A stretch of 64,000 nt of DNA from Patescibacteria group bacterium (lineage in GTDB: Bacteria > Patescibacteriota > UBA1384 > CAJBMM01). The translations under genes and the position numbers were made by a program. Of the stretch, positions 1-39,568 are shown in pieces. The notes below the pieces were generated by a model. That model saw only the letters and a list, made by a program, of their open reading frames with translations, did no database searches and was not told the DNA's origin. Position 1 is the first letter of the stretch. Each line of letters starts with the position of its first letter. The DNA lies in NCBI GenBank assembly GCA_041660565.1, contig JBAZWC010000001.1:366481-430480 (forward strand), in the 5' to 3' direction.

Positions 1-136
1 AAAGGAGACAATGGATGACCGAAGACGCCTAAAAAAGGATAACAAGGGATTGTAAAGGACAGCAAAGGGAGACAATGAAAGCCGTCCCATAGTTGCCCTT
101 AGGGATTCCCTAGCCATCCTAAGTATTCCTTTAATC

Positions 137-712: not shown

Positions 713-730
713 AGGTCCCTCCAGTTTAAG

Positions 731-794
731 GATGATAAGGGATAGCTAGGGGTTACTATGGAACACAAGGCACCCTCGTTACCCCTCGCCATCC
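731..794. repeat. G-rich/C-rich imperfect palindrome (GGG...CCC hairpin family) upstream of the four-helix-bundle gene
   Basis: gatgataagggatagctaggggttac ... caccctcgttacccctcgccatcc. Same architecture as the elements at 13898, 14516 and 20226. Confidence 0.5.
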
Positions 795-859
795 ATTGAT
801 CTCCCTTGTTATCCTTCGTTGTTGCCATTTGTATTCCTTCATTTAAAATTTAAAATTAG

Positions 860-3800: not shown

Positions 3801-4693
3801 TAGTCCAGGGATCCGAGCATCTGTACCTTTCCCGTTGACTCGTTTTGGATGTAGGTGTCAGAGTTGGTGTTATCTGAGTTGAGCCTTAGGATGGTGTTCT
3901 TGTTGATAATAAGGTTACCCTGTCCTGCTCCAGAGGTGAAGCCAACCTCTACGAAGCAGTTGGTACAGTTAGCAGGAGAAGCGTTGTTGTTGATGTCAAT
4001 GGTAACGGTGCTTCCAGGGGCCAAACCACTCATGGTTTGCAGAGTGGCAGTGTAGCCTGAGGCATAGGCAATCTTAGTCTCGCCATTCACTTCAAGAGAG
4101 TCACCGGTACCGTTTCCAACTGTGACAGTGCCGTAGTTAATCACTAGGGTATCGGCAGCGTTAGCAGCTGAGACTATCATAGGATCTTCGATGGTCCAGG
4201 TAGGGTTGTTCCCTGATCCGGCGTCAAAGATCACCTTATAGAAGGAGCTGGTACCGTTGAGGGTTCCTGAGAGGGAGTAGGAGCCTGAGGTGGCAGTAAA
4301 CTTGACTGTACTGGTACTGGCGGTAAAGGTACCTAAGTTACTCCAGGAGCCGGTGGTGCTAATGGTGTAGCTTCCTCCATTTAAGGTGGCGCCGCTGTCT
4401 ATAGTTATTGATGTAACAGCCGCGGTGGTAACATCTACCGTGATATCTTGCGCCGCAGCAATCTGCACGCTGTCAGCGGTGGTGGGAACTCTGCCGCACG
4501 TCCAGCTGGCAGTGCTGTTCCAGCTACCGGCCCCGCCGGCTTGAGATACACAGGCAGAAGCATGCGTCGTTTTCGCACCAAAGAATAGCCAGAGAACACC
4601 AATAGTAGCGAAAACGAAAATTCTAAGCACGAAATTCGAAGCACGAAACAAATTCTTAAATTCAAAATTAAAAATACTTAAACTTTTATTCAT
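860..4693 (-). CDS. Giant secreted surface protein (1277 aa), Thr/Ser/Gly/Asn-rich with a parallel beta-helix (pectin-lyase-like) repeat region
   Basis: N-terminal signal peptide (…TIGVLWLFFGAKTTHASA). NNxI/GNxI beta-helix-like repeats around aa 560-760. Long ORF with coding periodicity. Start codon overlaps the stop of the upstream four-helix-bundle gene. Confidence 0.75.
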   Translation of the reverse strand: MNKSLSIFNFEFKNLFRASNFVLRIFVFATIGVLWLFFGAKTTHASACVSQAGGAGSWNSTASWTCGRVPTTADSVQIAAAQDITVDVTTAAVTSITIDSGATLNGGSYTISTTGSWSNLGTFTASTSTVKFTATSGSYSLSGTLNGTSSFYKVIFDAGSGNNPTWTIEDPMIVSAANAADTLVINYGTVTVGNGTGDSLEVNGETKIAYASGYTATLQTMSGLAPGSTVTIDINNNASPANCTNCFVEVGFTSGAGQGNLIINKNTILRLNSDNTNSDTYIQNESTGKVQMLGSLDYADQASTGATETTLTDTARSAEWTTNSEANKYLRISSGLAEGLIYPITSNTTTELTYTTTASASFTETVSGSGSGRKVCSDSTTLITADNQQAGRYLYDETSSDYFLIRTSINADAACGSSFDSFSVVPYPGTITSLATGHTAHISDGLQATDHYEIEQFAHLTAQSGTACTSTVDSTKAPYYSAPTGSETVMNHADVCNLGRGTNGIYAGIATGAVNGANANEGVSVNYTWIKKNNYAMYLGGGKNNNATYSKGIVKTTVQQAYKQGIYIITGVGYNLIDQCLFYSGHAVSLQSRGNIVSNSTFTSSSPTLTSNNQIYDSDIIRGALGLNGNGIFVSNLNLIGYTSYPISIGTSTNNYFYNVNISYALEGIHLGNSVGKNIFNNLTIHDSYRGLYYLGASNNNIFVSPSLYSNTYAFQLSLSSSGNSIINGNFGSLGANTYDFRASSSSNYLTLYNTTLTSTINGITSANSSGIISKKDAGSGGVTKIWGAYTTPTAVAETPQAEETDKYDYASNSWEKSASVHSYYGTGTEDTDLNYDLSTSDLSAGPYAYRASATDATTFAIYRDEVSVGNATVGSTFTDTNAGVNVSFKIDGGSPTAYVVGDQYSFVVWDASGDTNTTKTVSPQQNDDTVTVAAATTMSFDGGASNHSTLSIASNSFDLINNGTVSGGNNDLTVPGTISGSGTFNMGTGSTVENRVMASKNFGSTSGALNWVFDTLTFSNPSVTNNYTITAATGGTGVISATTMNVGKSDDIRTTTFDNETNDRTLNLGNLNISSQGLFTASSTAPLTVSGNYTNSGTFTANSGTINMNGVGQQTLSGTMTGANAFYNLTLSNPSGTDASDDERTGFVPGIIFGAAATATNTYAITTPSCRVQYHSGDTYTWNNINWVGSLGRMIFFRNSATSGTWLTKVTGTQSVSYVNVSRSDASVSGGSAILANNGTSHDGTNNTNWTFGGTVKSTQINGGTINIGTGTVNIK

Positions 4694-5064
4694 TACTTTT
4701 CCAATTTTTGAATAATTGATCCCAAAATTAACATTAGTTCTTTAGCTTCATTTTGTAGACTTGTTTTTTGTTTATCTGATTCGGAATTTTCTTCTACATA
4801 AATTAGATTTAACCAATAGCATGTTTCTTTAGCTTCTTTTCTAGAGATTTTCATTCTCATAACAAGATCTTTCTTGCTGAGTGAATCGTTAGCTTCAAGA
4901 TAGTTTGCTCCAATAGAACCAGAAGAACGAACGACTTGTTTTCCGTCCTCAATATTTGCAATTGTTTTAGGTAAATTACGGATAAACACCCTAACATCAC
5001 GGGCAAATTTAGCCGTTCTTTCTTCTAAGTCATAAATTGGGGTCGGATTTTGGTTCATTGTCAT
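4693..5064 (-). CDS. Four-helix-bundle protein (Avd / 23S rRNA IVS protein family)
   Basis: ERTAKFARDV…VVRSSGSIGANYLEA…SKKDL…KETCYWLNL is a near-textbook TIGR02436 pattern. Its TAA stop overlaps the ATG of the giant gene (TAATG, 4691-4695). Confidence 0.78.
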   Translation of the reverse strand: MTMNQNPTPIYDLEERTAKFARDVRVFIRNLPKTIANIEDGKQVVRSSGSIGANYLEANDSLSKKDLVMRMKISRKEAKETCYWLNLIYVEENSESDKQKTSLQNEAKELMLILGSIIQKLEK

Positions 5065-5078
5065 TTCTTGTTTTTAAT

Positions 5079-6155
5079 TTAAAATTTATGTGCTTTTAAT
5101 TTGTTTCGAATTTGGTGCTTCGTGCTTAGTGCTTTTCTAAACAGATGTTTTATGCCATTCCAAATACTTCGTCTAAATCTGATTATCGCAAAACAAACCA
5201 GTACTATCGCCCCCATCAACCACCACGGTAGAATCCAGATCACGCGCTCCGAATACATTGCCGGGAACCCGTTGACGGAAAAGATAGTTAGCTTGGCGGT
5301 GTAGCGGCCAAACATCAGACCGGAACCTCGCCATTTTGTGCTATACGAACCGGTGTTGTCGGGGTATAGCATTTTGCCGCTCGAACTGATCGCCGTAATA
5401 CCAACCTCATTATTCTTGTAGTTGTAAAATGTAACGTTTCCACTTGGACGAATGGCGGTGGTAGTTGGATTGGAAATGGTGGCGGACAACTTGAGCGTTG
5501 GCGTAAGCGCAACTCGACTGAGCGAGAAATTAGTGATACTTGGAGTAACAGACGCTACGGTTTGGTTTGGATTATAAACCGTTAGGCGAATGAATGCCGC
5601 GTCACCCACACCAAACTGCATCGCTCCATAATAACTACCGGGCTTAGCTGATTTTGGCACATACACAGAATAATTGACTTCGCCTTTTTGACTAGCGTTG
5701 ATAGTAATTTTGGGATTTGAAACAGTTATATAAGGAAGAGTTTCCGATTTATTAGCTTGAATAGTGTTGGTGCTATTTTCTGAAGCTAATTTTAGATCAC
5801 CGGATGCTTGGTCTGGTGCGGCGCCTGTAACAGTAGCGTTTAGATTTACCGTCGAAGTGGTTTGGTTGATAATGCGCACAACTTGATTTTGAAAGCCACC
5901 TTGTGCAAGCGAGATTTCAGCAGTAGTGGGATTTAAGAAAAGCGGCTGCGTAGATGCATGGGCTGATCCGGTTAAGATGGCGAAACCGACAAATATTCCG
6001 ATGGTAACCACCACAAAGGAACACAAGGGATCATGATGGATAATGGGGGAAGACAAAGTAGCCCTAGTTATCCTTCGGGCAGCTCTTATAATCCTTAGCC
6101 GTCCTTTGGTAAGAAGTTTAAAAATTAAAAATTGGGATTTGAGATTTATTTTCAT
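5079..6155 (-). CDS. Cell-surface protein with N-terminal signal/anchor and C-terminal transmembrane helix (DUF916/DUF3324-like architecture)
   Basis: Hydrophobic N-terminal segment, beta-rich Asn/Thr-rich ectodomain, C-terminal TM (ILPWWLMGAIVLVCFAIIRF) and basic tail. Lies between the two giant genes. Confidence 0.55.
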   Translation of the reverse strand: MKINLKSQFLIFKLLTKGRLRIIRAARRITRATLSSPIIHHDPLCSFVVVTIGIFVGFAILTGSAHASTQPLFLNPTTAEISLAQGGFQNQVVRIINQTTSTVNLNATVTGAAPDQASGDLKLASENSTNTIQANKSETLPYITVSNPKITINASQKGEVNYSVYVPKSAKPGSYYGAMQFGVGDAAFIRLTVYNPNQTVASVTPSITNFSLSRVALTPTLKLSATISNPTTTAIRPSGNVTFYNYKNNEVGITAISSSGKMLYPDNTGSYSTKWRGSGLMFGRYTAKLTIFSVNGFPAMYSERVIWILPWWLMGAIVLVCFAIIRFRRSIWNGIKHLFRKALSTKHQIRNKLKAHKF

Positions 6156-6160
6156 TTTAC

Positions 6161-9100
6161 CTAATTCAAGCTAATGTTTATCAACACAGATGGTAGGATA
6201 TTTGATGCGTTGGTTTTGACTGCGCCAAAGCAAGAGTTAACCGCACCAATTTCAGTTGAATCAACCGCGCCCGCCGTGGTGGAGGTAACAGCGCAAGTGT
6301 TACGAACAGCCCCAAAGATGGCTTTTACATAAGCTTGGCCGTTAGTCATCATTATTGCTTGGCCACTGGCCGAATTTCCAACCACAATTACTCCGGCGGC
6401 ACCGGTCATAGACGCTACGCCGGTTTGCTTGACTTGGTTGTCTGCCGAGGTATCATTAATAACTGCGCTGGCAGGCTCTGTGGCGGCTGCGGTGTTGGTA
6501 TAGACGAATGTGCCACCGATAAAGAACCTTGTATCGACTATGTTTGATACGGTGTTAATCCCCGTTGTCGCTTTGGCGATAACTACTGTTGGATAGTTAG
6601 CGTTGTACGCTGGCAAATCTACCGACTTATGCACTTCACAAGCTTGTCCGGTGGTTGAAGCGGTACCACTTGCAGTAAGGTAAACGTATTCAATAGACGA
6701 AGCATCCAACGCAAGGCTTGAATCAGAATTTACAACACAACGGGAAATCTTGGTTGGGCTGGAAATGCTGTCAGAGGTATAAACTGAGCCAGCGGCAATT
6801 TTAATATTAAGCCCAGCGTCTATGCTTGGTTTTAAGGCACTGGTGGCTGAAGTTAAATCTCCCGCTACTGTTCCAGAGTTTGGATCTACACCGACAATCG
6901 GCACACCCGGCAAGCTGTTGCCTGAGGCTATTTTACCTGTTACATCAACAGTAAACACCGATACTGAAGAGCTATTCTTTATGGATAGCAGATCACCAGT
7001 TTGATCTTGCGCTGCGCTGATTGCCAAGGCGGTATCGGCCGCATTTGCCGATCTAATTACCACCGATCCAGCGTTTACCGTACCAGCAGTTATGGTGGTT
7101 GCATTTAGCGTGGTAGTGGTAATTACCGTTGCCATGTTGTTTATCTGAGATTGTAGACTGGCGGTAGTAGTTAATAACGAATTAATCTTTGGCGTGGCGT
7201 CGGTGATAAAGGCATCGTGAGATTGCAATATTGGCAAGTAAAGTACGGCCAGTTGGTTGTATTTAACACCGGTTATCTCGCCTGCAGCATTTCTAATTAC
7301 CAAATCTGGCACGTGCTGGTCTGTTTCTTCAGCAATCAACCCAAAATCTTGTAATCCCGGGGTAGATGAATTTTGATTCCAGGTAAAGTTAACCGGCCGT
7401 AAGGATAAAATTGCACTGGAATCAATTACCTTGGTGGTGATATCGGTTTTATACTTTAGCGACGACGATTGCGGAATAATTGAGGTGCCATTTAAGACCA
7501 ATGCGGTTCCGGCTCCAGCTGCGGCCAGAGTAGCGTCTAATGTCCCTGTAATTGTGGCATTGCCGGTAACAGTTAACCCGGCTGCGGCTGTTAATTCTGT
7601 AACGTTATAAGTTACACCGGCAGTGTTAAGATTGACGATATCAGTACCGGTTCCAACTGTGATTGTCTTTCCACCGGTTGAAGTGATGGATGAGTTCTCG
7701 GCAAAAACCAGGTTGGACGCGTTACCAGACGCTCCTAATAATAACTGATTAGTACCGGTGCCTTGCAAAATCAAATTACCGCTTGAACTAGATATTATGC
7801 CATCAGTTCCATCGTGTGTTAACTGAACGTAGTCAGTATTATCCGAAGCATAAACCCGCAAGTAGTTTTGGGCGCTTGCCATATTGATGTTGGCGATTCC
7901 GGTTGACGCCTGTAAATTAACATCGCCGCCTTGCGCAATTAGCGAATATGCCGCAGCTCCGGTTGAGGCAGTGCCTGAATATGTACCGCCTGACAACGTC
8001 CCACCTGAAATTGTGGCGCCATTAATCGTACCGGCTGCGGTGATAACACCGGCTGAGGAAACTGCGAATTTTGACACACCATTCAATTGCGCATCGATAA
8101 GATTACCAGTAAATCCGGTAGCGGCGTTGACACCGATGCCAGTACCGGCAGTAGACCATCCTGTTGAAGTGGTACCGGCGGGTTCGACTAGTAGTTGAGG
8201 CTTGGTAGTGGTAGCATCGCCCCCCGAGAACCAAGTGCCCGTCAACAACGCGGCGGGAGTAGAAGCGGCACCGTTCGATTGGCTGATTAGCTGTCCGGCT
8301 GCAATCTGCAACGCATAGTTTGCCGTAGTTGCACCGGATGCGGTTAAGTAAGCGGCAACGTTAGTGCCGGAAGTTGCGTTGGTGTTTGTAACACTGGAAT
8401 AAAGTCCGTAAGCAGTGAAGGCGGTATTTGCGTTAGCCCCAGAAACGGCGATGTTAAGCGCTTTGCCTGATCCACTAGCTGTACCGGCGGTGGATGTAAC
8501 CGCCAAGTTAGCCAGATTGCCCGAAGTAAGCGAGCTTGACGAAACATCAACCAAATTTCCAGTGGTAAGAGAGTTGCCTTGAACAGACATCCCCGCAGAT
8601 GTGCCGGTTTGAGTGGTATTAGATGATGCCACCGCCAAGTTGCCGGTAATTGATTGGTTACCAACGATAGTGCTTCCGGTTGAGGTACTGGCACCAGCAG
8701 CTGAGATAGAGAATTTGGAAACGCTGTTTACTTGTAAGTCTAATAGATTTGCCGATTGTCCGGTGGCAGCGTTAACCAGTAAAGCTGTTGACGTGTTGCC
8801 GGAGTTGTTTACGACCAAACCAGTGGCTGCGGTAAGAGTAGCAACATTGTAGGTAACGGTTGCGACATTCAAATTAAATACATCAGCGCCATTTCCAACA
8901 GTAATAGTCTTACCACCTCCGTCGGCTCCACCTAGCGTTGAGCTTTCTTGGAATAACAAGTTTACCGCGGTACCGGTGCTACCTAAAATAAATTGGCTAG
9001 TGCCAGACCCGGTAAGTTGGAGCTCACCGGAGCTACTCGAAATAACTGCATTAGTACCATCATGAGTTAACTCAGCGTATTTTGTACCGGCCGAATCATA

Positions 9101-12100
9101 AACACGTAGGTAGTTTTGTACTCCGGAAGTATTAATCGCCACAATACCGGTGGTTGGTTGCAAGGCAAGGTTAGTGGCAGCTGGGGTAACGATGGTGCCA
9201 ATTGATAACACATCGCCAGCAGTGGCAGTGGATATTGTAGTACCACTCCTGGACCAATATCCTACCGATCCGGTGCTAGACGCCACTAGAGTGCCGGCAA
9301 TAGTTAAATTACCCGCAGAATCAAGTTTAAATATTGACACTCCACCAACCTGCCAATTTGCCAAGTCTGCCGCAGAACCGGCTCCGCTTCCCGGAGCATT
9401 CATGCCAAAATAAGTACCACCATTTGCAGCAGCATTTCCACCAACTATGGCGCTACCAACCTGAATTACTGACGCCGTAGATGATGCAGCCGGCACCGTG
9501 GATACAACCAACGAAGTACCAGAGACTTGATTAAACGTACCGGTTGACGCGGTCAATACTCCACCGGTGATAGTGGCGGTGCCATCGGTAAGTGTACCAC
9601 CTTGAATAGTGCCGGTGGCGGTTACGGACGCGCCCGAAACTCCACCAGTAGCGCTAAACGATGCCGCAGAAACCGCTCCAGAGAACGATCCGGTGGTACC
9701 ACCTGCGATAGATCCGGTATTAATAATTCCTGTAGAATTTAGATTCAATCCGCCAGCTGTAACTGTGACTCCACCAGCGGTAACCGCAAGACCGCCAGCA
9801 GTTATCCCAATTCCTCCACTGGTGACTGTAAGCAACCCGGTAAAGTTAGAGGTGCCGTTGACATCAAATTTGTATGCTCCAGGTGCGGCACCAACCCCAA
9901 TATTCCCACCGTCTGTGCCCAAAATAATATTGCCAGTGCTTACATCACCAAGTGTGATTGTACCGGTGCCTTTGGCATTAATGGTAAGGTTTTCATTGGC
10001 GGCAGATGAAATCGTCGAAATATCAGCTCCGGATCCTGCCGCTTTGGCGGTAATCTTAATTCCGGTTGCCGCGCTGGCCGCTGAGGAATCAACCTGTAGC
10101 GAGTAATACGTTGAAGTAGTGGACGGTGCCACTATTAACGCGGTTGCCGAAGCATCTGAAGTGATAAGTGAACCCACTTTAAGAGTAGCGTAGGTTGATG
10201 CGCCAAGCCTTGAATACAAATCAAACCTGTCTGAGGCACCGGTCCATTGCAACGCTGCATAAGTACTTTTAACCGGGCCAAGATAAAACTGAATCTGCTG
10301 GCTATCAACATTGTCGGTAGCTTGATTGGTATCAATTGTAAACGACAATGACGATGTTCCATTCACGTTTGTTGACCCAATGTTTAGATTGTCAAAATAA
10401 CCGGTGTCAAAGTGCGCGGAGGACGATCCTAAATTAATCCCTGCCCCAGTTGGCACGATACTGGAATTCGTAGCAATGTTTGACCCGGATAATGTTAGAG
10501 CGGTCGACCCACCCACACTTAAAGTGGCGCCGGTTACTGAACCAAGGGATACGATGTTACCGGCAGAATCGATGGTGGCCACGTTACTACCGTTACCTTG
10601 AACCTGAAACTTTCCCGTAGATCCAGTAGCGATGTTGACACTAAAGTTGGCATCGGTAGCGGTATTCGACAAAACAACAGTAAGATCCCTGGCATCGGAA
10701 GTGGTGATTGTATTACCGTTTTCGTATGCTGCTTGCAATGTGGCACCAGAACCTACCCCTGCGCAAGACCCAAACACCGGAGTACCTGACCCATCTGCGA
10801 CTAAACATTGCCCGGATACACCAGCCGCCGTTACGCTAACATTGCCTGTACCATTACCGTACATAACCCCTTTACTGGTAATAGTGGTTAGCCCTGTGCC
10901 GCCATGCTGAACATCAATTGCCGAGCCTTGCCAACTACCAGATGTAATTGGCGATCCGAAAGCAAAACCCGCTCCTGCGCCTGTAGCCGTAAAGGTAGTC
11001 AGCCCATTTGCCGCTACCGTGGTTGTGTAATAGTTGCTGTTATCATACTTAACTGTTAATTGTGGTGCGGTGGTTGAGGTAATAGTAACTGGCACCGAGA
11101 AATCACCGCCCGAGCTGCTACCGATAAACGCGCCTGCAATATTAACATTTCCGTCTTTATCTACCTTGAATTTAGATACTCCATTGCCTTGAAGATTGAT
11201 AAAGTCAGCTGCCGATCCGGCACCAGATGCGGGAGCATTTACACTGATATACGTACCTCCGTTGGCTGCCGCATTGCCGCCAACTAAGGCATTGCCAATT
11301 TGGATGACCGAAGATGTGGCCGATGCAGCGGGGAGAGTAGAAACCACCATTGAATTACCTGAAACTTGATTCAAATTGAGAGAAGTGGCGGTGATGGCAC
11401 CACCCGTAATTGTCGCTGTTCCATCAGTCAAAGTACCGCCCTGAACCGTACCTGTTGCGGTTACCGATGCACCGGAAATTCCACCAGTAGAAGTAAGCGA
11501 ACCGACAGTGACCGGCTTAGCAAACGTAAACGCTGCCCCCGCTCCCGCCCCATTAAATGTGGTAGCGCCATTGGCAGCAACCGAAGCGGTAAAGTAGTTT
11601 GACGCATCATATCCCACAGTCAATTGTGGAGTAGTAGTAGAAGTTACAGATATTGGAGAAGTAAACTCTCCTGAGGAAGACCCGCCTGACATGACCGTCC
11701 CCGATATGGTAAGGTTTCCACTCGAATCAACTTTAAAGATCGAAGTGCCACCAACTTGTAAATTTATCATGTCACCGACATAACCAGCCGTACTGTTGAC
11801 TCCAAGGTAAGTGCCACTGGCGTTGCCACCAGTGATTGGCGATCCAAGCTGTAGTAATGAGGCGGCATTTGAGGCAACCGGCGCGCTCGAAATTGACACG
11901 GAACCACTAGTGTTACTGTAAATGACGCTGCTTGCACCAGTGCCCGGCTCCATATTCTGCAACTTGTCCGAGTTGATAGCACTGGCAACCGTGCCCAACT
12001 GACGGCGCGGAACTAATTCCGGGTCGGTCCCAATACGAATACCGATAAATAGGTTGTTCGATGAAAAGTCGAGCGAGGATGAAAATGCGGTAGATGATCC

Positions 12101-12604
12101 CAGCAATGTGTACAAAATACCGTTTTTGGCTGCAATAGTTTTAGTTTCAGTCCATAGAGCAGTATCGGAATTGGATGGATACGGATCAGCTGTGGTGCGA
12201 TCGGTGGCGTAAATGCTGTAACGCACGGTGTAATTGCCATCGTCAATAGGAGTTCGGGTGCTAGGTTGAATAACGCGTAAAGTAAGAGGGATCTGACGTG
12301 CCGTAGCCGCTTGCACTTTTGTTGTAACAGGTAAATATGCCATGTTGGACAAAAGCATCGTCAGAATAATGGCGGCTATCCCAACAACCCCTCCGGGCGT
12401 ATGCCCTACGGGCTGGAGCCTAATCACCCTTACAGCCCTTACGACCCCCCTTGTATTTCCACCTAAGGATGAGCAAAGGATCGCAAGGGATTGGCAAAGG
12501 GAGACAAAAGAGAAACCAACGCTTACGCGACCTTCTCGATTATGAGCAGGCTCTACACGTTTTGACCAGCGTGCAGATAGGTTTATTAACTTAGGAAATC
12601 TCAA
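6161..12604 (-). CDS. Giant fibrous surface protein (2147 aa), Gly/Thr/Ser/Ala-rich, with an embedded phage tail-fibre intramolecular chaperone (peptidase S74-like) domain and intragenic repeats
   Basis: SSLKYKTDITTKVIDSSAILSLRPVNFTW…DFGLIAEETDQHVPDLVIRNAAGEITGVKYNQLAVLYLPILQ (about 7200-7470) matches the endosialidase-chaperone (S74) pattern. Two families of roughly 120-aa internal repeats. TTG start with an AGAGGGGAG Shine-Dalgarno 6 nt upstream and a TTACAT-17-TATAAT promoter. Long basic-then-hydrophobic N-terminus resembles an extended signal peptide. Confidence 0.8.
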   Translation of the reverse strand: MRFPKLINLSARWSKRVEPAHNREGRVSVGFSFVSLCQSLAILCSSLGGNTRGVVRAVRVIRLQPVGHTPGGVVGIAAIILTMLLSNMAYLPVTTKVQAATARQIPLTLRVIQPSTRTPIDDGNYTVRYSIYATDRTTADPYPSNSDTALWTETKTIAAKNGILYTLLGSSTAFSSSLDFSSNNLFIGIRIGTDPELVPRRQLGTVASAINSDKLQNMEPGTGASSVIYSNTSGSVSISSAPVASNAASLLQLGSPITGGNASGTYLGVNSTAGYVGDMINLQVGGTSIFKVDSSGNLTISGTVMSGGSSSGEFTSPISVTSTTTPQLTVGYDASNYFTASVAANGATTFNGAGAGAAFTFAKPVTVGSLTSTGGISGASVTATGTVQGGTLTDGTATITGGAITATSLNLNQVSGNSMVVSTLPAASATSSVIQIGNALVGGNAAANGGTYISVNAPASGAGSAADFINLQGNGVSKFKVDKDGNVNIAGAFIGSSSGGDFSVPVTITSTTAPQLTVKYDNSNYYTTTVAANGLTTFTATGAGAGFAFGSPITSGSWQGSAIDVQHGGTGLTTITSKGVMYGNGTGNVSVTAAGVSGQCLVADGSGTPVFGSCAGVGSGATLQAAYENGNTITTSDARDLTVVLSNTATDANFSVNIATGSTGKFQVQGNGSNVATIDSAGNIVSLGSVTGATLSVGGSTALTLSGSNIATNSSIVPTGAGINLGSSSAHFDTGYFDNLNIGSTNVNGTSSLSFTIDTNQATDNVDSQQIQFYLGPVKSTYAALQWTGASDRFDLYSRLGASTYATLKVGSLITSDASATALIVAPSTTSTYYSLQVDSSAASAATGIKITAKAAGSGADISTISSAANENLTINAKGTGTITLGDVSTGNIILGTDGGNIGVGAAPGAYKFDVNGTSNFTGLLTVTSGGIGITAGGLAVTAGGVTVTAGGLNLNSTGIINTGSIAGGTTGSFSGAVSAASFSATGGVSGASVTATGTIQGGTLTDGTATITGGVLTASTGTFNQVSGTSLVVSTVPAASSTASVIQVGSAIVGGNAAANGGTYFGMNAPGSGAGSAADLANWQVGGVSIFKLDSAGNLTIAGTLVASSTGSVGYWSRSGTTISTATAGDVLSIGTIVTPAATNLALQPTTGIVAINTSGVQNYLRVYDSAGTKYAELTHDGTNAVISSSSGELQLTGSGTSQFILGSTGTAVNLLFQESSTLGGADGGGKTITVGNGADVFNLNVATVTYNVATLTAATGLVVNNSGNTSTALLVNAATGQSANLLDLQVNSVSKFSISAAGASTSTGSTIVGNQSITGNLAVASSNTTQTGTSAGMSVQGNSLTTGNLVDVSSSSLTSGNLANLAVTSTAGTASGSGKALNIAVSGANANTAFTAYGLYSSVTNTNATSGTNVAAYLTASGATTANYALQIAAGQLISQSNGAASTPAALLTGTWFSGGDATTTKPQLLVEPAGTTSTGWSTAGTGIGVNAATGFTGNLIDAQLNGVSKFAVSSAGVITAAGTINGATISGGTLSGGTYSGTASTGAAAYSLIAQGGDVNLQASTGIANINMASAQNYLRVYASDNTDYVQLTHDGTDGIISSSSGNLILQGTGTNQLLLGASGNASNLVFAENSSITSTGGKTITVGTGTDIVNLNTAGVTYNVTELTAAAGLTVTGNATITGTLDATLAAAGAGTALVLNGTSIIPQSSSLKYKTDITTKVIDSSAILSLRPVNFTWNQNSSTPGLQDFGLIAEETDQHVPDLVIRNAAGEITGVKYNQLAVLYLPILQSHDAFITDATPKINSLLTTTASLQSQINNMATVITTTTLNATTITAGTVNAGSVVIRSANAADTALAISAAQDQTGDLLSIKNSSSVSVFTVDVTGKIASGNSLPGVPIVGVDPNSGTVAGDLTSATSALKPSIDAGLNIKIAAGSVYTSDSISSPTKISRCVVNSDSSLALDASSIEYVYLTASGTASTTGQACEVHKSVDLPAYNANYPTVVIAKATTGINTVSNIVDTRFFIGGTFVYTNTAAATEPASAVINDTSADNQVKQTGVASMTGAAGVIVVGNSASGQAIMMTNGQAYVKAIFGAVRNTCAVTSTTAGAVDSTEIGAVNSCFGAVKTNASNILPSVLINISLN

Positions 12605-12637
12605 ATGGTTCTCCCCTCTTATGAGACTTACTAGTTA

Positions 12638-12666
12638 ATTATATATAATCCAGCTAGATAATGTAA
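12638..12666 (-). promoter_or_regulatory. Sigma-70-type promoter (TTACAT-17-TATAAT) for the giant gene
   Basis: Minus-strand -35 box at 12661-12666 and -10 box at 12638-12643, about 35 nt upstream of the TTG start. Confidence 0.5.
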
Positions 12667-12861
12667 GAGCATTTTTGCGCTTAAATTGAGCACAAATATC
12701 GCGCAATAATTTGCGCAAAAGGAATGGATCGGTTTATTTGAACAAAATATAACGTTTTTGAGCCTGTCAATACCAGTTATCCACAGGTAGTCGGCAGCAC
12801 ACGGCTTAATTTGAAATTGTTTCTTGTTCTGCTATGATAAAATCACTGAACGAGAAAACAT

Positions 12862-13122
12862 ATGTTAGACATTGTCAACCCATCACAAATAAATCAACTT
12901 AATTCTCGAGTTAATCAGGTATCCTTGTCTGCATCGATATCGCTGATTATAACCTCTGCCATCCTTACGCTGGTTTTTGTCGGAGGTACTGCATTTTACG
13001 TTTACGGCAATAAATATCCCGGTAACGCTTCTGAGATAATCAATTCCAGAAACAAAAATAACACCGACGCTGGTGCTAATTTAACAAATTCAAACTACCT
13101 GGTCCCGCCAGGACCACAATAG
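12862..13122 (+). CDS. Small hypothetical membrane protein
   Basis: Single TM segment. Divergent from the giant-gene promoter region. Weak support. Confidence 0.3.
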   Translation: MLDIVNPSQINQLNSRVNQVSLSASISLIITSAILTLVFVGGTAFYVYGNKYPGNASEIINSRNKNNTDAGANLTNSNYLVPPGPQ

Positions 13123-13123
13123 T

Positions 13124-13240
13124 AAGCACTAAATTCGAAGCACCAAGCACTAAATAAATCGTAAATACAAAATTCAAAGCTTAAAATTTGGAATTTTGGA
13201 TTTGTTTCGAGTTTAGAATTTCGAGCTTAGTGCTTTTCGT
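13124..13240. repeat. Long imperfect palindrome of the AAGCAC / GTGCTT repeat family, between a plus-strand gene end and the tRNA-Val 3' end
   Basis: aagcactaaattcgaagcaccaagcacta … tttagaatttcgagcttagtgctt. Related copies at about 4615-4655, 5115-5150, 53375-53410 and 59283-59320. Confidence 0.5.
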
Positions 13241-13242
13241 CT

Positions 13243-13319
13243 TGGTGGAACCGAGTGGACTCGAACCACTGACCCCCACAATGTCAATGTGATGCTCTAA
13301 CCAACTGAGCTACGGCTCC
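13243..13319 (-). tRNA. tRNA-Val (anticodon GAC), CCA encoded
   Basis: Reverse complement GGAGCCGTAGCTCAGTTGGTTAGAGCATCACATTGACATTGTGGGGGTCAGTGGTTCGAGTCCACTCGGTTCCACCA. Cloverleaf with GTTCGAGTC T-loop and anticodon loop TTGACAT. Confidence 0.85.
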
Positions 13320-13405
13320 ATTATTACGATTATAACATAAAAACGCATAAGTTGAAACATGTGGCTCCAGAGCCACCCCTACACCCCTAACCACCCAAAC
13401 TTACC

Positions 13406-13891
13406 CTAACGTACTACCACTTTTCCCGTCTGAGCGGGATTGTAGCGATTATAGTACCCAAAAGTGCCAGTCTTACTAAAACTAACATCTGCACTGCTTC
13501 CCACAGTAATAATGCCAATATTCAATGGCAGATAATCTGTGTTAGTAGGATTAGGATTACTAGATAAGTTTAGTTCGTTACTACTACTATTCACAAAATG
13601 AACAGTCTGGTTTTTACTTACGCTGATTGTCGCCGGCGAGAATCCGTCTTTACTAAAAGTAACTTGGTTTTCATAAACTATCGTACTTGCGGAGGGCGAT
13701 GGGCTCGAAGCCGAACTAGGACTATTTGTACTAATTGAGCTCGGATTTGGCGAGCTAGTAACCCGATCAAACGTATTAGGAGTCGGTGAAGGCATTGGTA
13801 CCGGGTTTTTATTTAAATTACTGTAAGCTAACCACAATCCCGCAATGATTATGACTAAGTAAATTAGTAAATTTAGATTCTTATTTTTCAT
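13406..13891 (-). CDS. Secreted or membrane-anchored protein with Ser/Pro-rich linker and cupredoxin-like beta domain (no Cu ligands evident)
   Basis: N-terminal hydrophobic anchor, S/P-rich linker, C-terminal beta-rich domain ending GKVVVR. Confidence 0.45.
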   Translation of the reverse strand: MKNKNLNLLIYLVIIIAGLWLAYSNLNKNPVPMPSPTPNTFDRVTSSPNPSSISTNSPSSASSPSPSASTIVYENQVTFSKDGFSPATISVSKNQTVHFVNSSSNELNLSSNPNPTNTDYLPLNIGIITVGSSADVSFSKTGTFGYYNRYNPAQTGKVVVR

Positions 13892-13897
13892 AATTTA

Positions 13898-13985
13898 GGA
13901 CTGTTAGGGTTGTTAGGGAAGTTAGGGCAGTTGGGAAAACCATTAACACCCCCAACCACCCCTAACACCCCTAATTCCCCTTATA
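13898..13985. repeat. TTAGGG-repeat / CCCTAA-repeat imperfect palindrome (G4-capable on both strands) downstream of a four-helix-bundle gene
   Basis: ctgttagggttgttagggaagttagggcagttggg-aaaaccattaacaccc-ccaaccacccctaacacccctaattcccc. Confidence 0.6.
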
Positions 13986-14507
13986 CTTTTGGTTTTTCCT
14001 TTCATTAAACAGTTTTTCACTGTAGCCACCTTCGTTTTTGAATTTTTCTTCCAGACTTGTAATTTGTTTACCCAACAGAAATGTAGTCTGGTTTATAAAT
14101 GTTATCAGCATATTTGCGGCAATTTTAGGGTCACTGGGAAGATCGGGAGTATTAAGGTGACCTAGGTCTACCCAAACTGCCCTAAACTCCCTAAATCCCC
14201 TTACAATTTCATGGTCTTTCCCCAACAGTTCTAGGTTCCTTTGGCGTAAAAAATCTTGATAATCTAACAACAGTTCTTCCTGTGACGCTTTGGCAACCCC
14301 AGTTAGTTTGATATACATTTTCAGTGATTTTTCCACAGAGCCCTCGGCAATGTTTTGTCTGCCACTTCGAGCAGCTTGAATCATTTGCTCTACTAATCTA
14401 CCATATTCTTTACCAGCCAAAAATTTCTGGCAAAAAATTACCGTTAAATCGTATACAATTGTTGCCATTTTAAATGAAGCTAAATTTTTGTAGCCTGATT
14501 GGGGCAT
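13971..14507 (-). CDS. Four-helix-bundle protein (Avd / 23S rRNA IVS protein family) with C-terminal extension
   Basis: …AARSGRQNIAEGSVEKS…EELLLDYQDFLRQRNLELLGKD. Conserved core of about 110 aa. The C-terminal roughly 65 aa overlaps a copy of the GGG/CCC repeat (14140-14200) and may be a read-through. Confidence 0.7.
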   Translation of the reverse strand: MPQSGYKNLASFKMATIVYDLTVIFCQKFLAGKEYGRLVEQMIQAARSGRQNIAEGSVEKSLKMYIKLTGVAKASQEELLLDYQDFLRQRNLELLGKDHEIVRGFREFRAVWVDLGHLNTPDLPSDPKIAANMLITFINQTTFLLGKQITSLEEKFKNEGGYSEKLFNERKNQKYKGN

Positions 14508-14515
14508 TTGGTCCT

Positions 14516-14592
14516 TTTAGGGTAGTTTGGGACGTTAGGGTTGTTGGGAGAATAACCACCCCTAACACCCCTTACCGCTCTAACAACCCTTA
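14516..14592. repeat. TTAGGG/CCCTAA imperfect palindrome upstream of the four-helix-bundle gene
   Basis: tttagggtagtttgggacgttagggttgttggg-agaataacc-acccctaacaccccttaccgctctaacaacccttac. Confidence 0.6.
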
Positions 14593-17220
14593 CGTAACTT
14601 TAAACCTAATTTGCTCTTTCACCAAATCAACCTTAATTGTTCCACCAGTATTTATTTCTCCGCGGACAATCATCTGTGAGATTGGATTAAGTAGCTGGTT
14701 CTCAATTACCCTTTTTAGCGGCCGAGCACCGTAACGACTATCATAACCGATTTTGGCTAAGTGATCTTTGACCTGTTTGGACACCACTAAATTAATATGC
14801 TGTTTATTAAGACGTATTAGTACTAAATTGAGCTGAATATCGACAATTTTGACCAGTTGCTCGGGTTTTAACGGATTAAAGATTATTACGTCATCTAATC
14901 GGTTCAAAAATTCAGGCTTAAAATGTTCTTTAAGTACCTCATCAATTTTTTCTTCCAGCTTCACCTCTTCTTCGGCCTCTGCGCTATCACCAGACACAAA
15001 CCCGAGTCGCTTAATGCCACTTTCAGAAGCGTATTGTTGCATAATGTCCGATCCCAAGTTACTGGTTAAGATAATTACGCAATTCTTAAAATCTACATTA
15101 CGACCCTTGGCGTCAGTCAATCTGCCGTCATCCAAAATCTGCAACAAGATACTGAATACATCGGGATGCGCTTTTTCGATTTCATCAAGCAGCACCACAC
15201 TATACGGCCGGCGACGGATCATCTCGGTTAACTGCCCACCTTCTTCGTACCCCACATACCCTGGTGGCGAACCAACCATACGTGAAACAGCGTGTTTCTC
15301 CATATATTCGGACATATCAAGGCGCACCAATGCCGATTCGTCATTAAACAGTGCTTCGGCCAGTGCCTTAACCAGCTCGGTTTTCCCCACGCCGGTTGGC
15401 CCCAAAAAGATGAATGATGCAATCGGGCGCTTCTCTTCACTTAACCCAGCTCGCGAGCGTCTGATAGCATTTGCCACTGTTGTGATGGCCTCTTCTTGAC
15501 CTACCACCCTGTGCGCTAAAATTGACTCCAAATCGTTAAGTTTAGCAAGCTCTCCGGACAACATTTTGGTCACCGGCACGCCGGTCCACCGCGCCACTAC
15601 CGCTGCAATATCGTCCTCGGTTACCTTTTCTTTGAGCATTTTGGCACTTTTTGGTAGCTGTTCTAGCCGAACGTTCTCTTTTTGAATTTCTTTTTCCAAT
15701 TTGGGAATTTCGCCATAACGCAGACGCGCCACTTCCTCCAAATTGGCTTCGCGCTCGGCAGTGTCGGCGTTCGATTTTAGCACTTCAAGCATTTTGGATT
15801 TTTGTCGCACACTGGTGATAATAGACTTTTCTAACTGCCACTCGGCTTCCAAGGTTGATGACTTTTCTTTTAGCTCCGACAGCTCTTTTTGCAACTTTTC
15901 TAAACGATCTTTATTTGAAGCGTCATCATCATTTCGAATCGCTTCACGCTCAATTTCCAGTTGCATCACTTTGCGTTTAAGATGATCTAGCTCGGCCGGC
16001 ATCGAATCTACCTCCATGCGCAATGCCGATGTGGCCTCGTCAATCAAATCGATCGCTTTGTCTGGCAAAAATCGATCGGTAATGTAGCGGGCAGACAGTT
16101 CGACTGCTGCCACCAAGGCTGCGTCAGTAATATGCGTGCCATGATGCACTTCGTACTTTTCTTTCACACCTCGCATAATAGCGATGGCGTCTTCGATACT
16201 TGGCTCAGACACGTAAACCGGTTGAAATCGTCTGGCCAATGCTTGATCTTTTTCGATGTATTGTTGATATTCTTTCAGCGTGGTTGCCCCGATGGCGTGC
16301 AAAGTGCCTCGTGCTAGCGCCGGTTTAAGCAAATTGCTAGCGTCCATTGATCCTTCGGCCGCGCCGGCGCCAACCAAAGTGTGCAGCTCATCGATAAATA
16401 GAATAAATTTACCCTGCACCTCATCAATCGCTTTTAACACCGCTTTCAAACGTTCTTCAAAATCACCTCGGTGCTTAGCCCCGGCTAACATTGAGCCTAA
16501 ATCAAGCGACATTACTTGCCTGTCTTTAAGCGTTTCGGGCACATCACCGGAGACAATGCGGGTTGCCAACCCTTCCGCAATCGCTGTTTTACCCACACCC
16601 GGCTCACCAATTAAAACCGGATTATTTTTGGTCCGACGCGTGAGCACCTGCATCACCCGACGCACCTCTTCATCCCGGCCAATAACCGGATCAAGTTTGT
16701 TGTTTCGCGCCATATCACATAGGTTGATGGCGTATTTCTCTAAGGCTTGATATTTTTGCTCCGGGTCGGTTGATGTAACTCGCTCGGTGCCCCGAATAGT
16801 CGAGAGCGTTTGCAACATTAATTCGCGATTAATACCAAGTTTAGATAGAATTTGTTTTGCTTCAGACGATACCTCTAACATTGCCAATAGCAGGTGTTCA
16901 ATTGAAACATATTCATCGGTTAAGGTACGTGCCTCTTTTTCGGCTTGATTAAGCACGCGCACCAACGTTGGCGAGATCATAATTGAATTGGCCGCGCTTA
17001 GTTTAGGTAAATGCTCAAGCTGAGTTAATAAATCATCCCGAATCACGTCAAAATCTTTATTTACCGATTGAATTAGAGGGCGCATTAGATCTTCGCCAAC
17101 TTCTAAACTGGCGTAAAACAAATGCAGTGGTTCAATTTGGCTATGATGCAATTCACGCGCCAACTCTTCGGCGCGGGTTAAAACCGCCGCAGTTTTACTG
17201 GTAAATTTATTCGGATCCAT
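14590..17220 (-). CDS. clpB: ATP-dependent chaperone ClpB (AAA+ disaggregase, two nucleotide-binding domains)
   Basis: Clp N domain, Walker A motifs GEPGVGKT and GPTGVGKT, coiled-coil middle domain, 876 aa. Confidence 0.95.
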
Positions 17221-20174: not shown

Positions 20175-20225
20175 CGCAAAGGTTAGTTTAACAGCTTTGA
20201 TTAATACTACGCAAGGATTGGATCA

Positions 20226-20307
20226 GTTGGGGAAATTAGGGAAGTTCGGGTTGTTGGGAGAGCCAATGGCCTACCAACCGCCCTAATACCCCCTAATCCC
20301 CCTAACC
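20226..20307. repeat. TTAGGG/CCCTAA-type imperfect palindrome (same family as 13898 and 14516)
   Basis: gttggggaaattagggaagttcgggttgttggg-agagccaatggcc-taccaaccgccctaataccccctaatccccctaacc. Confidence 0.6.
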
Positions 20308-20399
20308 GACTCTTCAGCATTTTCTAAGGCTTTCCCCATACTGTTAACTTGTAACCAAAACCGTCGGTAATAGTGTAGAATAGAAATGAGGGGAAAATA

Positions 20400-22128: not shown

Positions 22129-22482
22129 TTATAAACTTGGCTGATTTTCGGATGGCTGCGTTCCGGCAGCTGAAATCGAGCTATCCATTGTAGTAATGCT
22201 ATTTGTTACAGATGTTGAGGCACTATCCAAATCTGTAGCAGTTACGGGTGCAGTGGAAACTGGCGTAGCGACAGCCGGAGATGCAGTTGAAGAAGCTGAA
22301 GAAGTTGAAGAAGTTGTGCTCGCAGATACGCTCGGCGCTGCAACAGGTGAATTAACTGAAATATTCGCAGATTCGCTGTTATTTTGATTGGTTAAATAAT
22401 ACGCGATAAAACCCGACCCCGCTACAATAATTAACCCCAGTACCCACCACAAAATGGCATGGCTTTTATGTTGTTCAGGCAT
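22129..22482 (-). CDS. Small membrane-anchored Ser/Thr-rich protein
   Basis: N-terminal TM (ILWWVLGLIIVAGSGFIAYYL) followed by S/T-rich low-complexity tail. Confidence 0.45.
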   Translation of the reverse strand: MPEQHKSHAILWWVLGLIIVAGSGFIAYYLTNQNNSESANISVNSPVAAPSVSASTTSSTSSASSTASPAVATPVSTAPVTATDLDSASTSVTNSITTMDSSISAAGTQPSENQPSL

Positions 22483-27122: not shown

Positions 27123-27514
27123 GGGGCTGTATTAGATTCGACAGGCCGTCCACATTCACCCTTGCATAACGAGACGCTCACTCACTCGTAAAACGCGAGC
27201 AAAAAACAATAACTGCCAACAGTTTTGTTAGCAAAGTCAAAGGTGCTTTTGCATCTATGTCCTTTGCGCCAGCTTTCGCCTAAAACCGAAAGCCGTTTGC
27301 TTTCTTCTTCGTTGATGAAGAAAGGCCAAGCGTCATATTATCAACGCGCCAAAGTGTAGATTCATTCTGTAAACTTTGAAAGATACTGAATGTGCTGGGA
27401 TAACTAACTTGGAGTGCTCATTATGTTAGACCAAAAGAAATTTGAACACCTAATTATGTAGAAAAGATGAATGTACCGGTTTGGACAGGAGTGCAACTCT
27501 CCTCAGCTCCACCA
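27123..27514 (+). ncRNA. ssrA: tmRNA (SsrA), one-piece. tRNA-like ends GGGGCUG…UCCACCA. Predicted tag ORF ANSFVSKVKGAFASMSFAPAFA*
   Basis: 5' ggggctgtattagattcgacagg and 3' ggacaggagtgcaactctcctcagctccacca closely parallel E. coli ssrA. Resume codon GCC follows aataact, and the frame ends gct ttc gcc taa. Confidence 0.85.
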
Positions 27515-27952: not shown

Positions 27953-28065
27953 ACATTTGTAGAATTCCGTCGCAGACATTTTTGATACCAACATGAAAGT
28001 GTTGGTGTTTTTTGTTACAAAAAAACCTACTCATTCAAGTAGGATGTAATCGCCAGAAAATAGAA

Positions 28066-28094
28066 GCGGGAGGCAGCCAATTGGCTGCCTCCCG
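28066..28094. terminator. Perfect GC-rich palindromic hairpin (gcgggaggcagcc-aatt-ggctgcctcccgt) downstream of the secreted paralogue gene
   Basis: 13-bp perfect stem. Same hairpin family at 29031-29059 and 29990-30018. Confidence 0.55.
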
Positions 28095-28123
28095 TGTGAG
28101 ACAGGTGTTGCCGGCGCCGTGGG

Positions 28124-38478: not shown

Positions 38479-38526
38479 TCGCTCTAATAATACTTTAATC
38501 CTTTATCGTTTTTTGACAAATAATTA

Positions 38527-38556: not shown

Positions 38557-38567
38557 ACCGCGAGGAA

Positions 38568-39500: not shown

Positions 39501-39525
39501 TATTTGTTTTATTTACAAATAATTA

Positions 39526-39555: not shown

Positions 39556-39568
39556 ACTTGCGGGAAGA

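Follow-up and report, generated by a model that had tools for sequence, protein, structure and literature searches.

The 64,000-nucleotide stretch of DNA of which a part is given above (hereafter the window) belongs to one metagenome-assembled genome (MAG) of Patescibacteria, within the candidate phyla radiation (CPR), and carries three genes of the four-helix-bundle family PF05635, each bracketed by its own type of periodic palindrome. A probability of about 0.6 is assigned to the reading that these palindromes are the arms of very small (~0.5-0.75 kb) PF05635 cassettes, probably selfish, which are built like the intervening sequences (IVSs) of 23S rRNA that carry an open reading frame (ORF). 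The arms would consist of 7- or 9-nt units, arrayed in tandem on one side and matched by an array of their reverse complements on the other, and are predicted to fold as segmented stems in which helices of ~7 bp are parted by 2-nt mismatches. The cassettes would sit between ordinary chromosomal genes and not in rRNA, and ORF-less palindromes with the same units would represent an empty or non-autonomous form. Comparison with about 180 loci from other genomes, many of whose MAG taxon labels are unreliable, suggests that the same build recurs with other repeat units in many bacterial phyla. All functional statements made here rest on sequence comparison.

Two of the three genes were already known to the original prediction, in which G-quadruplex (G4)-capable TTAGGG/CCCTAA palindromes were proposed to flank a four-helix-bundle gene in an IVS-like arrangement; the third was recovered with a profile built during this analysis. 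The three paralogues are ~23% identical to one another and have one arm type apiece, and the genes around the one at 13971-14507 are all on the minus strand. Family assignments refer to cut-offs of 33.8 bits for Pfam PF05635, 24 for TIGR02436 and 40 for TIGR04258. The genes and their arms are the following (MFE, minimum free energy; z, score relative to shuffled sequences):

13971-14507, minus strand: PF05635 gene 1, a 'four helix bundle suffix domain' protein of 178 aa, with units GTTAGGGNN / NNCCCTAAC
14510-14592, minus strand: palindrome c5, between clpB and gene 1
13896-13987, minus strand: palindrome c3, between gene 1 and a cupredoxin-like gene; -41.7 kcal/mol, z -3.3
14124-14206, minus strand: internal array c4, in frame, coding for the helix 3-helix 4 linker (VRGFREFRAVWVDLGHLNTPDLPSDP) and 68% identical to c3
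137-712, minus strand: PF05635 gene 2, a four-helix-bundle protein of 191 aa (Pfam PF05635 40.7 bits, TIGR02436 39 bits)
725-812, minus strand: palindrome c1, of the TAAGGGA sister type, MFE -34.8, similar to c0 and to the palindrome at 12420-12505
28-190, minus strand: palindrome c0, downstream of gene 2, with TAAGGGA / TCCCTTA units
4693-5064, minus strand: PF05635 gene 3, a plain four-helix-bundle protein of 123 aa (Pfam PF05635 49.3 bits), with AAGCACN and CGAAACAAAT units
5075-5150, minus strand: left (upstream) arm of gene 3, GAAAAGCACTAAGCACGAAGCACCAAATTCGAAACAAATT, with 7-nt AAGCACN units
4600-4690, minus strand: right (downstream) arm of gene 3, AATTTGTTTCGTGCTTCGAATTTCGTGCTTAGAATTTTC, an approximate reverse complement of the upstream arm

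Genes 1 and 2 each lie between two complete palindromes, which could also pair with one another; gene 3 is enclosed by a predicted gene-spanning stem. The IVS-like build of the original prediction stood in its general form, with the correction that gene 1 is flanked by two complete hairpins and not by one stem spanning the gene. Gene 1 scored 52.1 bits with TIGR04258 and 32.1 with TIGR02436, its Pfam PF05635 score of 29.5 being under the cut-off, and is publicly annotated as 'four helix bundle suffix domain-containing protein [Patescibacteria group bacterium]'. On its downstream side, c3 consists of four G units, a loop and four C units. On the upstream side, the last unit of c5 enters the AAGGA just 5' of the gene 1 ATG. 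The arrays also supply stop codons: those of clpB (TAA, 14590-14592), gene 1 (TAG, 13971-13973) and the cupredoxin-like gene (TAG, 13406-13408) fall inside the first or second TAAGGG or TTAGGG unit, namely the first unit of c5 (TAAGGG), the second of c3 and the first, GTTAGGG, of the half element c2 described below. Homologues of gene 1 at two other loci, L086 and L084, likewise terminate inside a unit.

Gene 2, whose units are TAAGGGA, has c1 upstream, between the stop of a 1277-aa gene (860) and its own start (712), and c0 downstream, which its C-terminal extension enters. Read in the sense of the gene, the G-tract half of c0 (~186-95) covers the final codons and the C-tract half follows at ~85-30; the palindrome is predicted to fold as a segmented stem at -36.9 kcal/mol (30-170) in a 9-nt register, with lag-9 matches at 140-186. 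Gene 3 is located between two large surface-protein genes. Its arms are AT-rich and are predicted to pair across the gene, and in its subfamily the left arm terminates in CGAAACAAAT(T/A)nnA immediately 5' of the ATG. No Shine-Dalgarno-like purine run was visible 5' of the start codon of gene 3 (window 5065-5085) or in the subfamily loci L173, L179, L181, L177 and L182; a poor Shine-Dalgarno sequence has also been reported for the S23p ORF of Coxiella. The R-S-x3-N-I-x-E-G motif reported for the PF05635 family (PMC3936711) was present, with R47, S48, N52, E55 and G56 invariant in 28 sequences including gene 2.

Two of the three arm types are also present in the window without an ORF (20222-20310 and 13115-13245). 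These and the other free-standing copies are listed below; where no strand is given, none was assigned:

13115-13245: the gene 3 cassette in its 'empty', ORF-less form, a palindrome rich in A+T, 56 nt per arm, beside tRNA-Val
20222-20310: solo palindrome c6, of the GTTAGGG/CCCTAAC type, in the intergenic region between the divergent xseA and extracytoplasmic function (ECF) sigma-factor genes; -48.1 / -41.3 kcal/mol, z -4.8
12420-12505: solo palindrome of the TAAGGGC/GCCCTTA type, C-tract half first, MFE -34.9, similar to c1
13360-13412, minus strand: half element c2, in gene sense a G-unit array GTTAGGGTA AGTTTGGGT GGTTAGGGG TGTAGGGGT; z +0.85
59280-59320: half copy of the AAGCAC-type arm (TTTCGTGCTTAGAATTTAGTGCTTAGTGCTTTTTC), upstream of a P-type ATPase gene

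The hairpin at 13115-13245 is the largest inverted repeat of the window. Its left arm is identical to the upstream flank of gene 3 at 46/59 positions and its right arm to the downstream flank at 48/61, and neither score was reached by any of 500 shuffles. The palindrome at 12420-12505 falls in the listed N-terminus (12358-12604) of a 2147-aa ORF (6161-12604), whose first ~80 residues (...NTRGVVRAVRVIRL...) are translated palindrome. Since this N-terminus reads like a translated repeat, the palindrome probably lies upstream of the true start codon.

Three of the six GGG/CCC copies first listed agree with their description, and the list was corrected at four points. Those at 13898-13985 (c3), 14516-14592 (c5) and 20226-20307 (c6) were confirmed as palindromes of three to four 9-nt units NNGTTAGGG, a short loop and three to four inverted units CCCTAACNN; their mutual identity is 70-75% over ~80 nt, a score reached by 0 of 500 shuffles. 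No PF05635 gene is adjacent to the last of them, the site being between xseA and the ECF sigma-factor gene. The copy at 731-794 is also a palindrome, with only two tracts per side and of the sister type TAAGGGA/TCCCTTA, and that at 14128-14200 (c4) is a genuine repeat which lies within ORF 13971-14507 and codes for the conserved peptide VRxFREFRxxW..NTPxLPxxP. At 13373-13410, only the C-tract half exists; a matching G half is absent, the fold has a z of +0.85, and the claim of a palindrome was dropped for this site. Two palindromes of the sister type, at ~28-190 and 12420-12505, were missing from the list, as was the ORF-less hairpin at 13115-13245. Folding as long hairpins held for c3 and c6, which beat their shuffles (-36 to -48 kcal/mol, z -3.3 to -4.8), less so for c5 (z -1.3 on the minus strand, -2.05 on the plus strand), and not for 13373-13410.

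The association of arms with PF05635 genes, which the original prediction had proposed to examine, was demonstrated both in the window and outside it: palindromic or complementary arms were found at 3/3 window genes and at 10/10 plain PF05635 genes (sample of n=10 loci), and for 8 of these 10 the complementarity was matched by at most 2 of 200 shuffles. Flank-to-flank pairing was scored by an ungapped complementarity window in place of RNAduplex energies. The whole-flank energies are set by composition (-54.6 kcal/mol for own flanks vs -60.6 for controls), and this measure was discarded. In the subfamily of gene 3, RNAalifold gave a consensus gene-spanning stem of 24 pairs from five loci. At locus L079, the order is murC, an arm of (CAAAGGTTN)x4, the PF05635 ORF, an arm of (NAACCTTTG)x4, murB, a solo hairpin and hpf, where the solo hairpin (1501-1600) contains both arm arrays of the same locus around a 14-nt loop. 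Locus L058 has the same cassette build with 7-nt units (NNTCAGC / GCTGANN), so that the period is 7 or 9 nt, and not 9 throughout.

Arms and ORF were evidently inherited together. Homologues of gene 3 with 60-71% identity occur in MAGs named from several phyla, and at seven further loci of this subfamily the gene lies co-directionally between unrelated host genes: after pgk, after a T2SS-F gene, between dnaX and obg, between ftsX and pyrG, in an mnh/mbh antiporter operon, in a type II secretion cluster and between giant surface-protein genes. When gene 3 was aligned with loci L173 and L170, similarity covered the left arm from its outer end, the whole ORF and the right arm up to its outer end, and no similarity was found outside these limits in the three unrelated contexts. 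These alignments indicate that arms and ORF are co-inherited and have been relocated jointly into unrelated contexts.

Gene 1 contains a further array inside its coding sequence. The stretch between its four-helix part and the 'suffix' (query residues 101-127) is a translated 9-nt array, and the type of this array is specific to the lineage. Type A, found in Patescibacteria, has TTTAGGGNN ... CCCNAANNN translated as FRxFRxxW..NTPxLPxxP; type B has TAGGNCCTA units translated as (N/D)RSYxTY(K/R)TY; type C has GTCNGAC or GATCNGAC units translated as SDxSDxSD; type D has CTTAAGT units and type E AATTGGCC units. Linkers free of arrays also exist, for example in Chitinophagaceae and Ignavibacteriota MAGs. 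The AlphaFold2 model of gene 1 (predicted local distance difference test, pLDDT, 91.5) has helices at 10-29, 33-58, 62-89, 127-158 and 164-177 with the linker at 90-126. Its best matches in the PDB were 2GSC (Xcc0516; target-normalised template-modelling score, TM, 0.91; root-mean-square deviation 1.8) and 2RLD, and a profile search also matched 2GSC. The predicted build is thus helices 1-3, the array-coded linker, helix 4 and a fifth helix, on an up-down bundle of the Xcc0516 / BT_0352 type. Since the match with 2GSC spans all four bundle helices, helix 4 belongs to the 'suffix', and the array is inserted in frame into the helix 3-helix 4 loop.

Codon usage demonstrated a constraint on the DNA of this linker. 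In type-B linkers, tyrosine is encoded by TAT and TAC at 105:5, vs 98:76 in the rest of the same genes (p = 3e-14), and in type-A linkers 28/33 arginine codons are AGG, vs 19/112 elsewhere (p = 1e-12). Across four type-A loci, the linker DNA is near-invariant and synonymous differences are frequent in the rest of the gene. In c4, the G tracts arise where an AGG codon meets a following G, and the C tracts from proline codons, the codon choice preserving the repeat unit. The internal array is kept at the nucleotide level, and an in-frame array with fixed codons is a clear case of selection on nucleotide sequence within a coding region.

The flanks of the 'suffix' genes were studied in 164 loci gathered from genome and metagenome collections and by exact-protein look-ups. 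For the 80 loci of the genome collection, arrays of 9-nt period occurred at 0.98/kb within 150 nt of the gene borders vs 0.10/kb elsewhere (~10x), and no border enrichment was seen for periods of 7, 8, 10, 11 or 12 nt. In the full set, k-mer-dense arrays of the matching type were present in 17-26% of flanks vs 0.2-0.8% of distant 200-nt blocks, a 30-100x enrichment, and the type of the flank array was that of the linker of its own gene in 13/13 cases for type A, 15/16 for B, 5/7 for C and 3/4 for D. Moreover, own flanks were closer to their own linker than same-type flanks of other loci in type B (p = 0.01) and type C (p = 0.004); for type A, the concordance was not significant (n=7). Among homologues of gene 1, locus L086 (73% identical) has complete G/C palindromes on both sides and follows a 1715-aa gene, L082 has a complete palindrome upstream and the C half downstream, and L084 has the G half upstream and the C half downstream, which places the gene in the loop of a single hairpin; both L082 and L084 lie beside recF-dnaN-dnaA.

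The cassettes leave little space around them, the median gaps being 43 and 26 nt, and 83% of upstream neighbours are co-directional against a baseline of 72% (p = 0.018). Some are located inside operons, between hsdS and hsdR of a type I restriction system (L007 8750-11757) or between cas3 and cas4 of a CRISPR-cas locus (L011 4236-9619). A cas4 context was also observed at L015, L019, L022 and L025, and tRNA genes are neighbours at L003-L006 and L016.

Tight packing, co-direction with neighbours and sites inside operons favour an RNA-level role. The arms would most likely act in the transcript, the cassette relying on read-through transcription. By analogy with the rRNA IVSs, the stems could be cut by a double-strand-specific RNase (RNase III), a cleavage which would release the cassette from the host transcript and render the insertion harmless. 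Movement would probably proceed by recombination between arms and ORF-less palindromes, yielding either arm-ORF-arm or palindrome-ORF-palindrome arrangements.

Several results weigh against the cassette reading. A flank array was detectable in only ~1/3 of 'suffix' loci, and gene-spanning complementarity at >=17/20 positions, although enriched (3.7% vs 0.15%), concerns a minority of them. The folds of c5 and c4 are only marginally better than shuffles (z -1.3 and -1.5). Compensatory changes were seen at only 2 pairs of the stem that spans the gene in the gene 3 subfamily; as most of its pairs are invariant, this structure is not proven by covariation. No target-site duplication was recognised at the arm ends in the alignment of the window with L173 and L170, and no true empty site was found at an orthologous position, since the cupredoxin-like neighbour is without close homologues. 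The copies are 70-79% identical, which gives no sign of recent movement, and no recombinase, transposase, RNase III or reverse transcriptase gene was found among the ~35 larger window ORFs scanned. The stability of sense and antisense hairpins showed no asymmetry (75 vs 66, p = 0.97), so that RNA-level and DNA-level roles are not separable. Finally, the conservation of the internal array and the sequence-level conservation of the arms are not explained by RNA processing alone.

This last point fits the rival in which the periodic arrays are putative recognition sites of the cassette's own protein, presumably a pentameric ring, that would bind one 7-9-nt unit per subunit in the manner of TRAP or MraZ. 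A run of three to six units could encircle such a ring, and binding at the 5', internal and 3' arrays would regulate expression of the gene or mark the element. The fold of gene 1 matches 2GSC, which is pentameric (PMC4990558). The unit type tracks the protein subfamily and is the same in linker and flanks, with three types for three paralogues in one window; own flanks resemble own linkers most in types B and C; in the gene 3 subfamily, conservation of the arms extends beyond structure to their sequence, and the internal array is constrained at the nucleotide level. On the other hand, concordance of types is equally expected from joint descent of arms and ORF, and its locus-specific form was not significant in type A. 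As a replacement for the cassette reading, self-recognition is considered unlikely, if worth keeping in mind; it is compatible with the cassette model, and the RNA-processing and self-recognition models can both hold. A reading in which the palindromes are recombination sites for a recombinase encoded elsewhere, integron/attC-like or like repetitive extragenic palindromes (REPs) with their REP-associated tyrosine transposases (RAYTs), with PF05635 and perhaps the cupredoxin-like ORFan as ordinary cargo, would account for the row of small genes each parted by an imperfect palindrome (clpB, c5, gene 1, c3, cupredoxin-like gene, c2), for the ORF-less copies and for a cupredoxin-like gene with no homologue of >36% identity. 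The attC core sequences are GTTRRRY and RYYYAAC, which GTTAGGG / CCCTAAC resembles. Their order, however, is opposite here (GTTAGGG...CCCTAAC and not RYYYAAC...GTTRRRY) and the seventh base is G instead of a pyrimidine; the units are repeated 3-6 times; unit types differ between PF05635 subfamilies even inside a single genome; neither an integrase nor a transposase turned up among the ~35 larger window ORFs; and the cargo is always PF05635, the cupredoxin-like case excepted. This explanation was judged improbable, and an attC site proper was ruled out by the motif order and by the lack of an integrase among the scanned window ORFs. TIGR-Tas arrays were also considered and set aside, the present arrays having no spacers.

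That the palindromes are ordinary species-specific intergenic hairpins (REP-like, RNA stabilisers or terminators) adjoining four-helix-bundle genes by chance is suggested by the many other intergenic hairpins of the window that are equally or more stable, and by the solo palindromes that adjoin unrelated genes. Nevertheless, 4 of the 7 non-coding GGG/CCC-type copies fill the 4 gaps flanking two PF05635 genes, for which, with ~55-60 intergenic gaps, a probability of about 1e-3 was estimated by the author. This reading is further contradicted by the 30-100x border enrichment in 164 loci, by the match of types, by the presence of an array with fixed codon choice inside coding sequence and by the arms of the plain PF05635 genes. 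The terminator variant was rejected as well: no terminator-like site coincided with the palindromes in 12300-14800, and because the stems are without a following T tract, they are not intrinsic (Rho-independent) terminators. Chance adjacency is therefore very improbable. G4 or i-motif formation, given in the original prediction as an alternative fold on opposite strands, could be verified as a motif and not as the relevant property. The pattern search, carried out in the window, returned 4 canonical G4 motifs on one strand and 3 on the other vs 0.17 and 0.66 in first-order Markov simulations, and 3 strict G-tract/C-tract palindromes vs 0.03 simulated, so that canonical (G3N1-7)3G3 motifs are over-represented. 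They occur in c3, c4, c5 and c6 and are not conserved as such among homologous arrays. Outside type A and its sister type, no G tracts occur: homologous elements are built from units such as TAGGACCTA, GATCGGAC, CTTAAGT, AATTGGCC, AAGCACN, CAAAGGTTN and TCAGC, and the arrays that other lineages carry at the same three sites have none. What all types have in common is short tandem units, self-complementarity (a G half with a C half, or palindromic units) and a position at a PF05635 gene border or in the helix 3-4 loop. Since most repeat types are without G tracts, the G4/i-motif capacity is regarded as a by-product of one unit sequence. In addition, the G half adjoins its own complement, so that hairpin or duplex would compete with the quadruplex, and 2/3 of the window cassette types have no four-tract G4 motif. 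A G4/i-motif switch regulating the adjacent genes is, on these grounds, scarcely credible.

For the cassette reading, the closest known relative is the rRNA IVS. The IVS of Coxiella is an S23p (PF05635) ORF bordered by 28-bp terminal inverted repeats that form an RNase III-cut stem; ORF-less IVSs are known, and an older idea, cited in the same paper, is of a mobile element with an ORF that promotes the element's movement (PMC4990558). PF05635 ORFs have also been described in insertions of 16S and 23S rRNA of CPR bacteria (10.1101/2024.02.27.582315) and PF05635 genes in cas loci (PMC3936711), and the PF05635 protein Xcc0516 forms a pentameric ring (PMC4990558). The IVSs of Leptospira and Coxiella burnetii and the CPR 16S/23S insertions share with the present elements PF05635/S23p as sole cargo, the existence of ORF-less versions and a long-suspected selfish or mobile nature, and their complementary ORF-enclosing stem is also present at gene 3 and at 10/10 plain PF05635 genes. 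By contrast, the window cassettes lie between protein-coding or tRNA genes and in operons and not in an rRNA helix, their arms are tandem 7-/9-nt units with, in some, a complete hairpin per side, and one subfamily holds an in-frame array; RNase III cleavage, known for IVSs, would apply here by analogy.

Other systems resemble the cassettes in part. Rickettsia palindromic elements (RPEs) are palindromic repeats inserted in frame in protein-coding genes. Like them, the 'suffix' array is a palindromic element translated in a loop between secondary-structure elements, and the linker peptide varies by lineage while the DNA element is kept. Compared by description, it differs from RPEs in occupying one fixed position in one family, in being old and cross-phylum and in matching the flanks of its own gene. 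Miniature inverted-repeat transposable elements (MITEs) and REP-type repeats likewise have ORF-less palindromes that share arms with a longer ORF-carrying element in the same genome; here, however, the ORF partner has no recognisable transposase, no target-site duplication was identified and the window copies are few and diverged. An integron cassette with attC is also a small promoter-less ORF followed by an imperfect palindrome of 60-90 nt with GTTAGG-/CCTAAC-like motifs, and it differs in the reversed motif order, repeated units, cargo-specific unit type and lack of an integrase among the scanned window ORFs. Avd, the accessory protein of diversity-generating retroelements (DGRs), has a homologous pentameric four-helix-bundle fold (PMC10053308) and acts on structured nucleic acid, whereas the sequence match of gene 1 is of the Xcc0516 type. 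PF05635 may also be related to the HEPN superfamily. For a DGR, no reverse transcriptase was present among the neighbours or larger window ORFs; template and variable repeats were not searched for. The PADLOC scan and the phage collection gave no match and the plasmid collection a single Prevotella record, so no tie between the cassettes and classical mobile elements is apparent from these comparisons.

Few small proteins of unknown function are as widespread as those of the PF05635 family, which include the rRNA IVS ORFs and Avd homologues. Their genes are frequent insertions in CRISPR-cas and type I restriction operons, and the origin and mobility of IVSs have been in question since the early 1990s. 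With its genes normally packaged between periodic palindromic arms, the family becomes a genetic element that can be defined as such, and rRNA IVSs may be just one of the insertion niches of a much wider class. No earlier description of periodic palindromic arms around non-rRNA PF05635 genes, or of the in-frame array, was found in the searchable full-text literature, a scope that leaves out subscription-only work and database family notes. The finding extends the IVS-type elements and has a real chance of defining a broader element class. A wider proposal can be made tentatively, and is held as possible although doubtful: PF05635 genes with periodic arms would be unrecognised, phylum-spanning minimal selfish elements in which a ring protein recognises the 7-/9-nt arm units, one per subunit, to drive or guide processing or relocation. 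ORF-less palindromes would then be non-autonomous derivatives or landing sites, rRNA IVSs a special case and the in-frame array a third binding site. At a practical level, gene callers are misled by the stop codons and spurious N-termini that the arrays contribute.

The window has 46% G+C. Of the gene content, the following neighbours and RNA genes are mentioned above or complete the picture:

14590-17220, minus strand: clpB
13406-13891, minus strand: cupredoxin-like gene (PF13473, 161 aa)
13243-13319, minus strand: tRNA-Val
27123-27514: transfer-messenger RNA (tmRNA) gene, tag peptide ANSFVSKVKGAFASMSFAPAFA

A tRNA-Asn gene is also present. The scan with Rfam 15 detected no rRNA gene in the window, only tRNA and tmRNA passing the gathering threshold; permissive thresholds likewise assigned the palindromes to no family, and their only matches, all sub-threshold, were to generic miRNA-precursor hairpins. 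The cupredoxin-like gene is bracketed by c3 and the half element c2, and 5.8 billion proteins were covered by the homologue search behind the 36% identity limit. The gene may represent another kind of cargo, or else an ORFan caught between arrays. Intergenic hairpins of equal or greater stability than the palindromes were observed at 45881-45980, 44211-44310, 28061-28160 and 46861-46960, and an additional G4 motif at 46926-46948.

Further arrays were observed in the compared loci. At L003 5311-5400 and L005 4990-5090, arrays of different types (AATTGACCT units and TTAGGG/CCCTAA units, respectively) occupy the same position behind seemingly orthologous genes of ~305 aa in two related genomes. 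Locus L016 has several solo periodic palindromes of AAGTAACCT units within 20 kb (7309-7361, 8832-8868, 12414-12464), of a type that differs from the linker type of its own 'suffix' gene. Solo periodic palindromes were also seen at L064 15758-15810 and 18930-18999 (GATCGGACG units) and at L040 2069-2235 (CACAGATTA units). Directly 5' of mraZ, 9-nt arrays occur at L031 7304-7355 (TAGGACCAA) and L070 10476-10552 (AGGGAAANN); these could be MraZ operator repeats instead of cassette arms, another pairing of a ring-forming protein with periodic sites.

Two other repeats of the window were noted. At 22273-22325, a 9-nt period (GAAGAAGCT GAAGAAGTT GAAGAAGTT) lies within a 117-aa ORF that has no Pfam match; it is a coding three-residue repeat and has no relation to the palindromes. 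At 38509-38558 and 39508-39557, a 50-nt direct repeat is present in two copies, 96% identical and 999 nt apart, each of which terminates in a GC-rich hairpin (GGGCGGGCACGG..CCCGCCC). The copies lie 3' of two adjoining paralogues with an RNA polymerase alpha C-terminal domain (38568-39395 and 39569-39985), and repeat pair and paralogues together look like a local tandem duplication.

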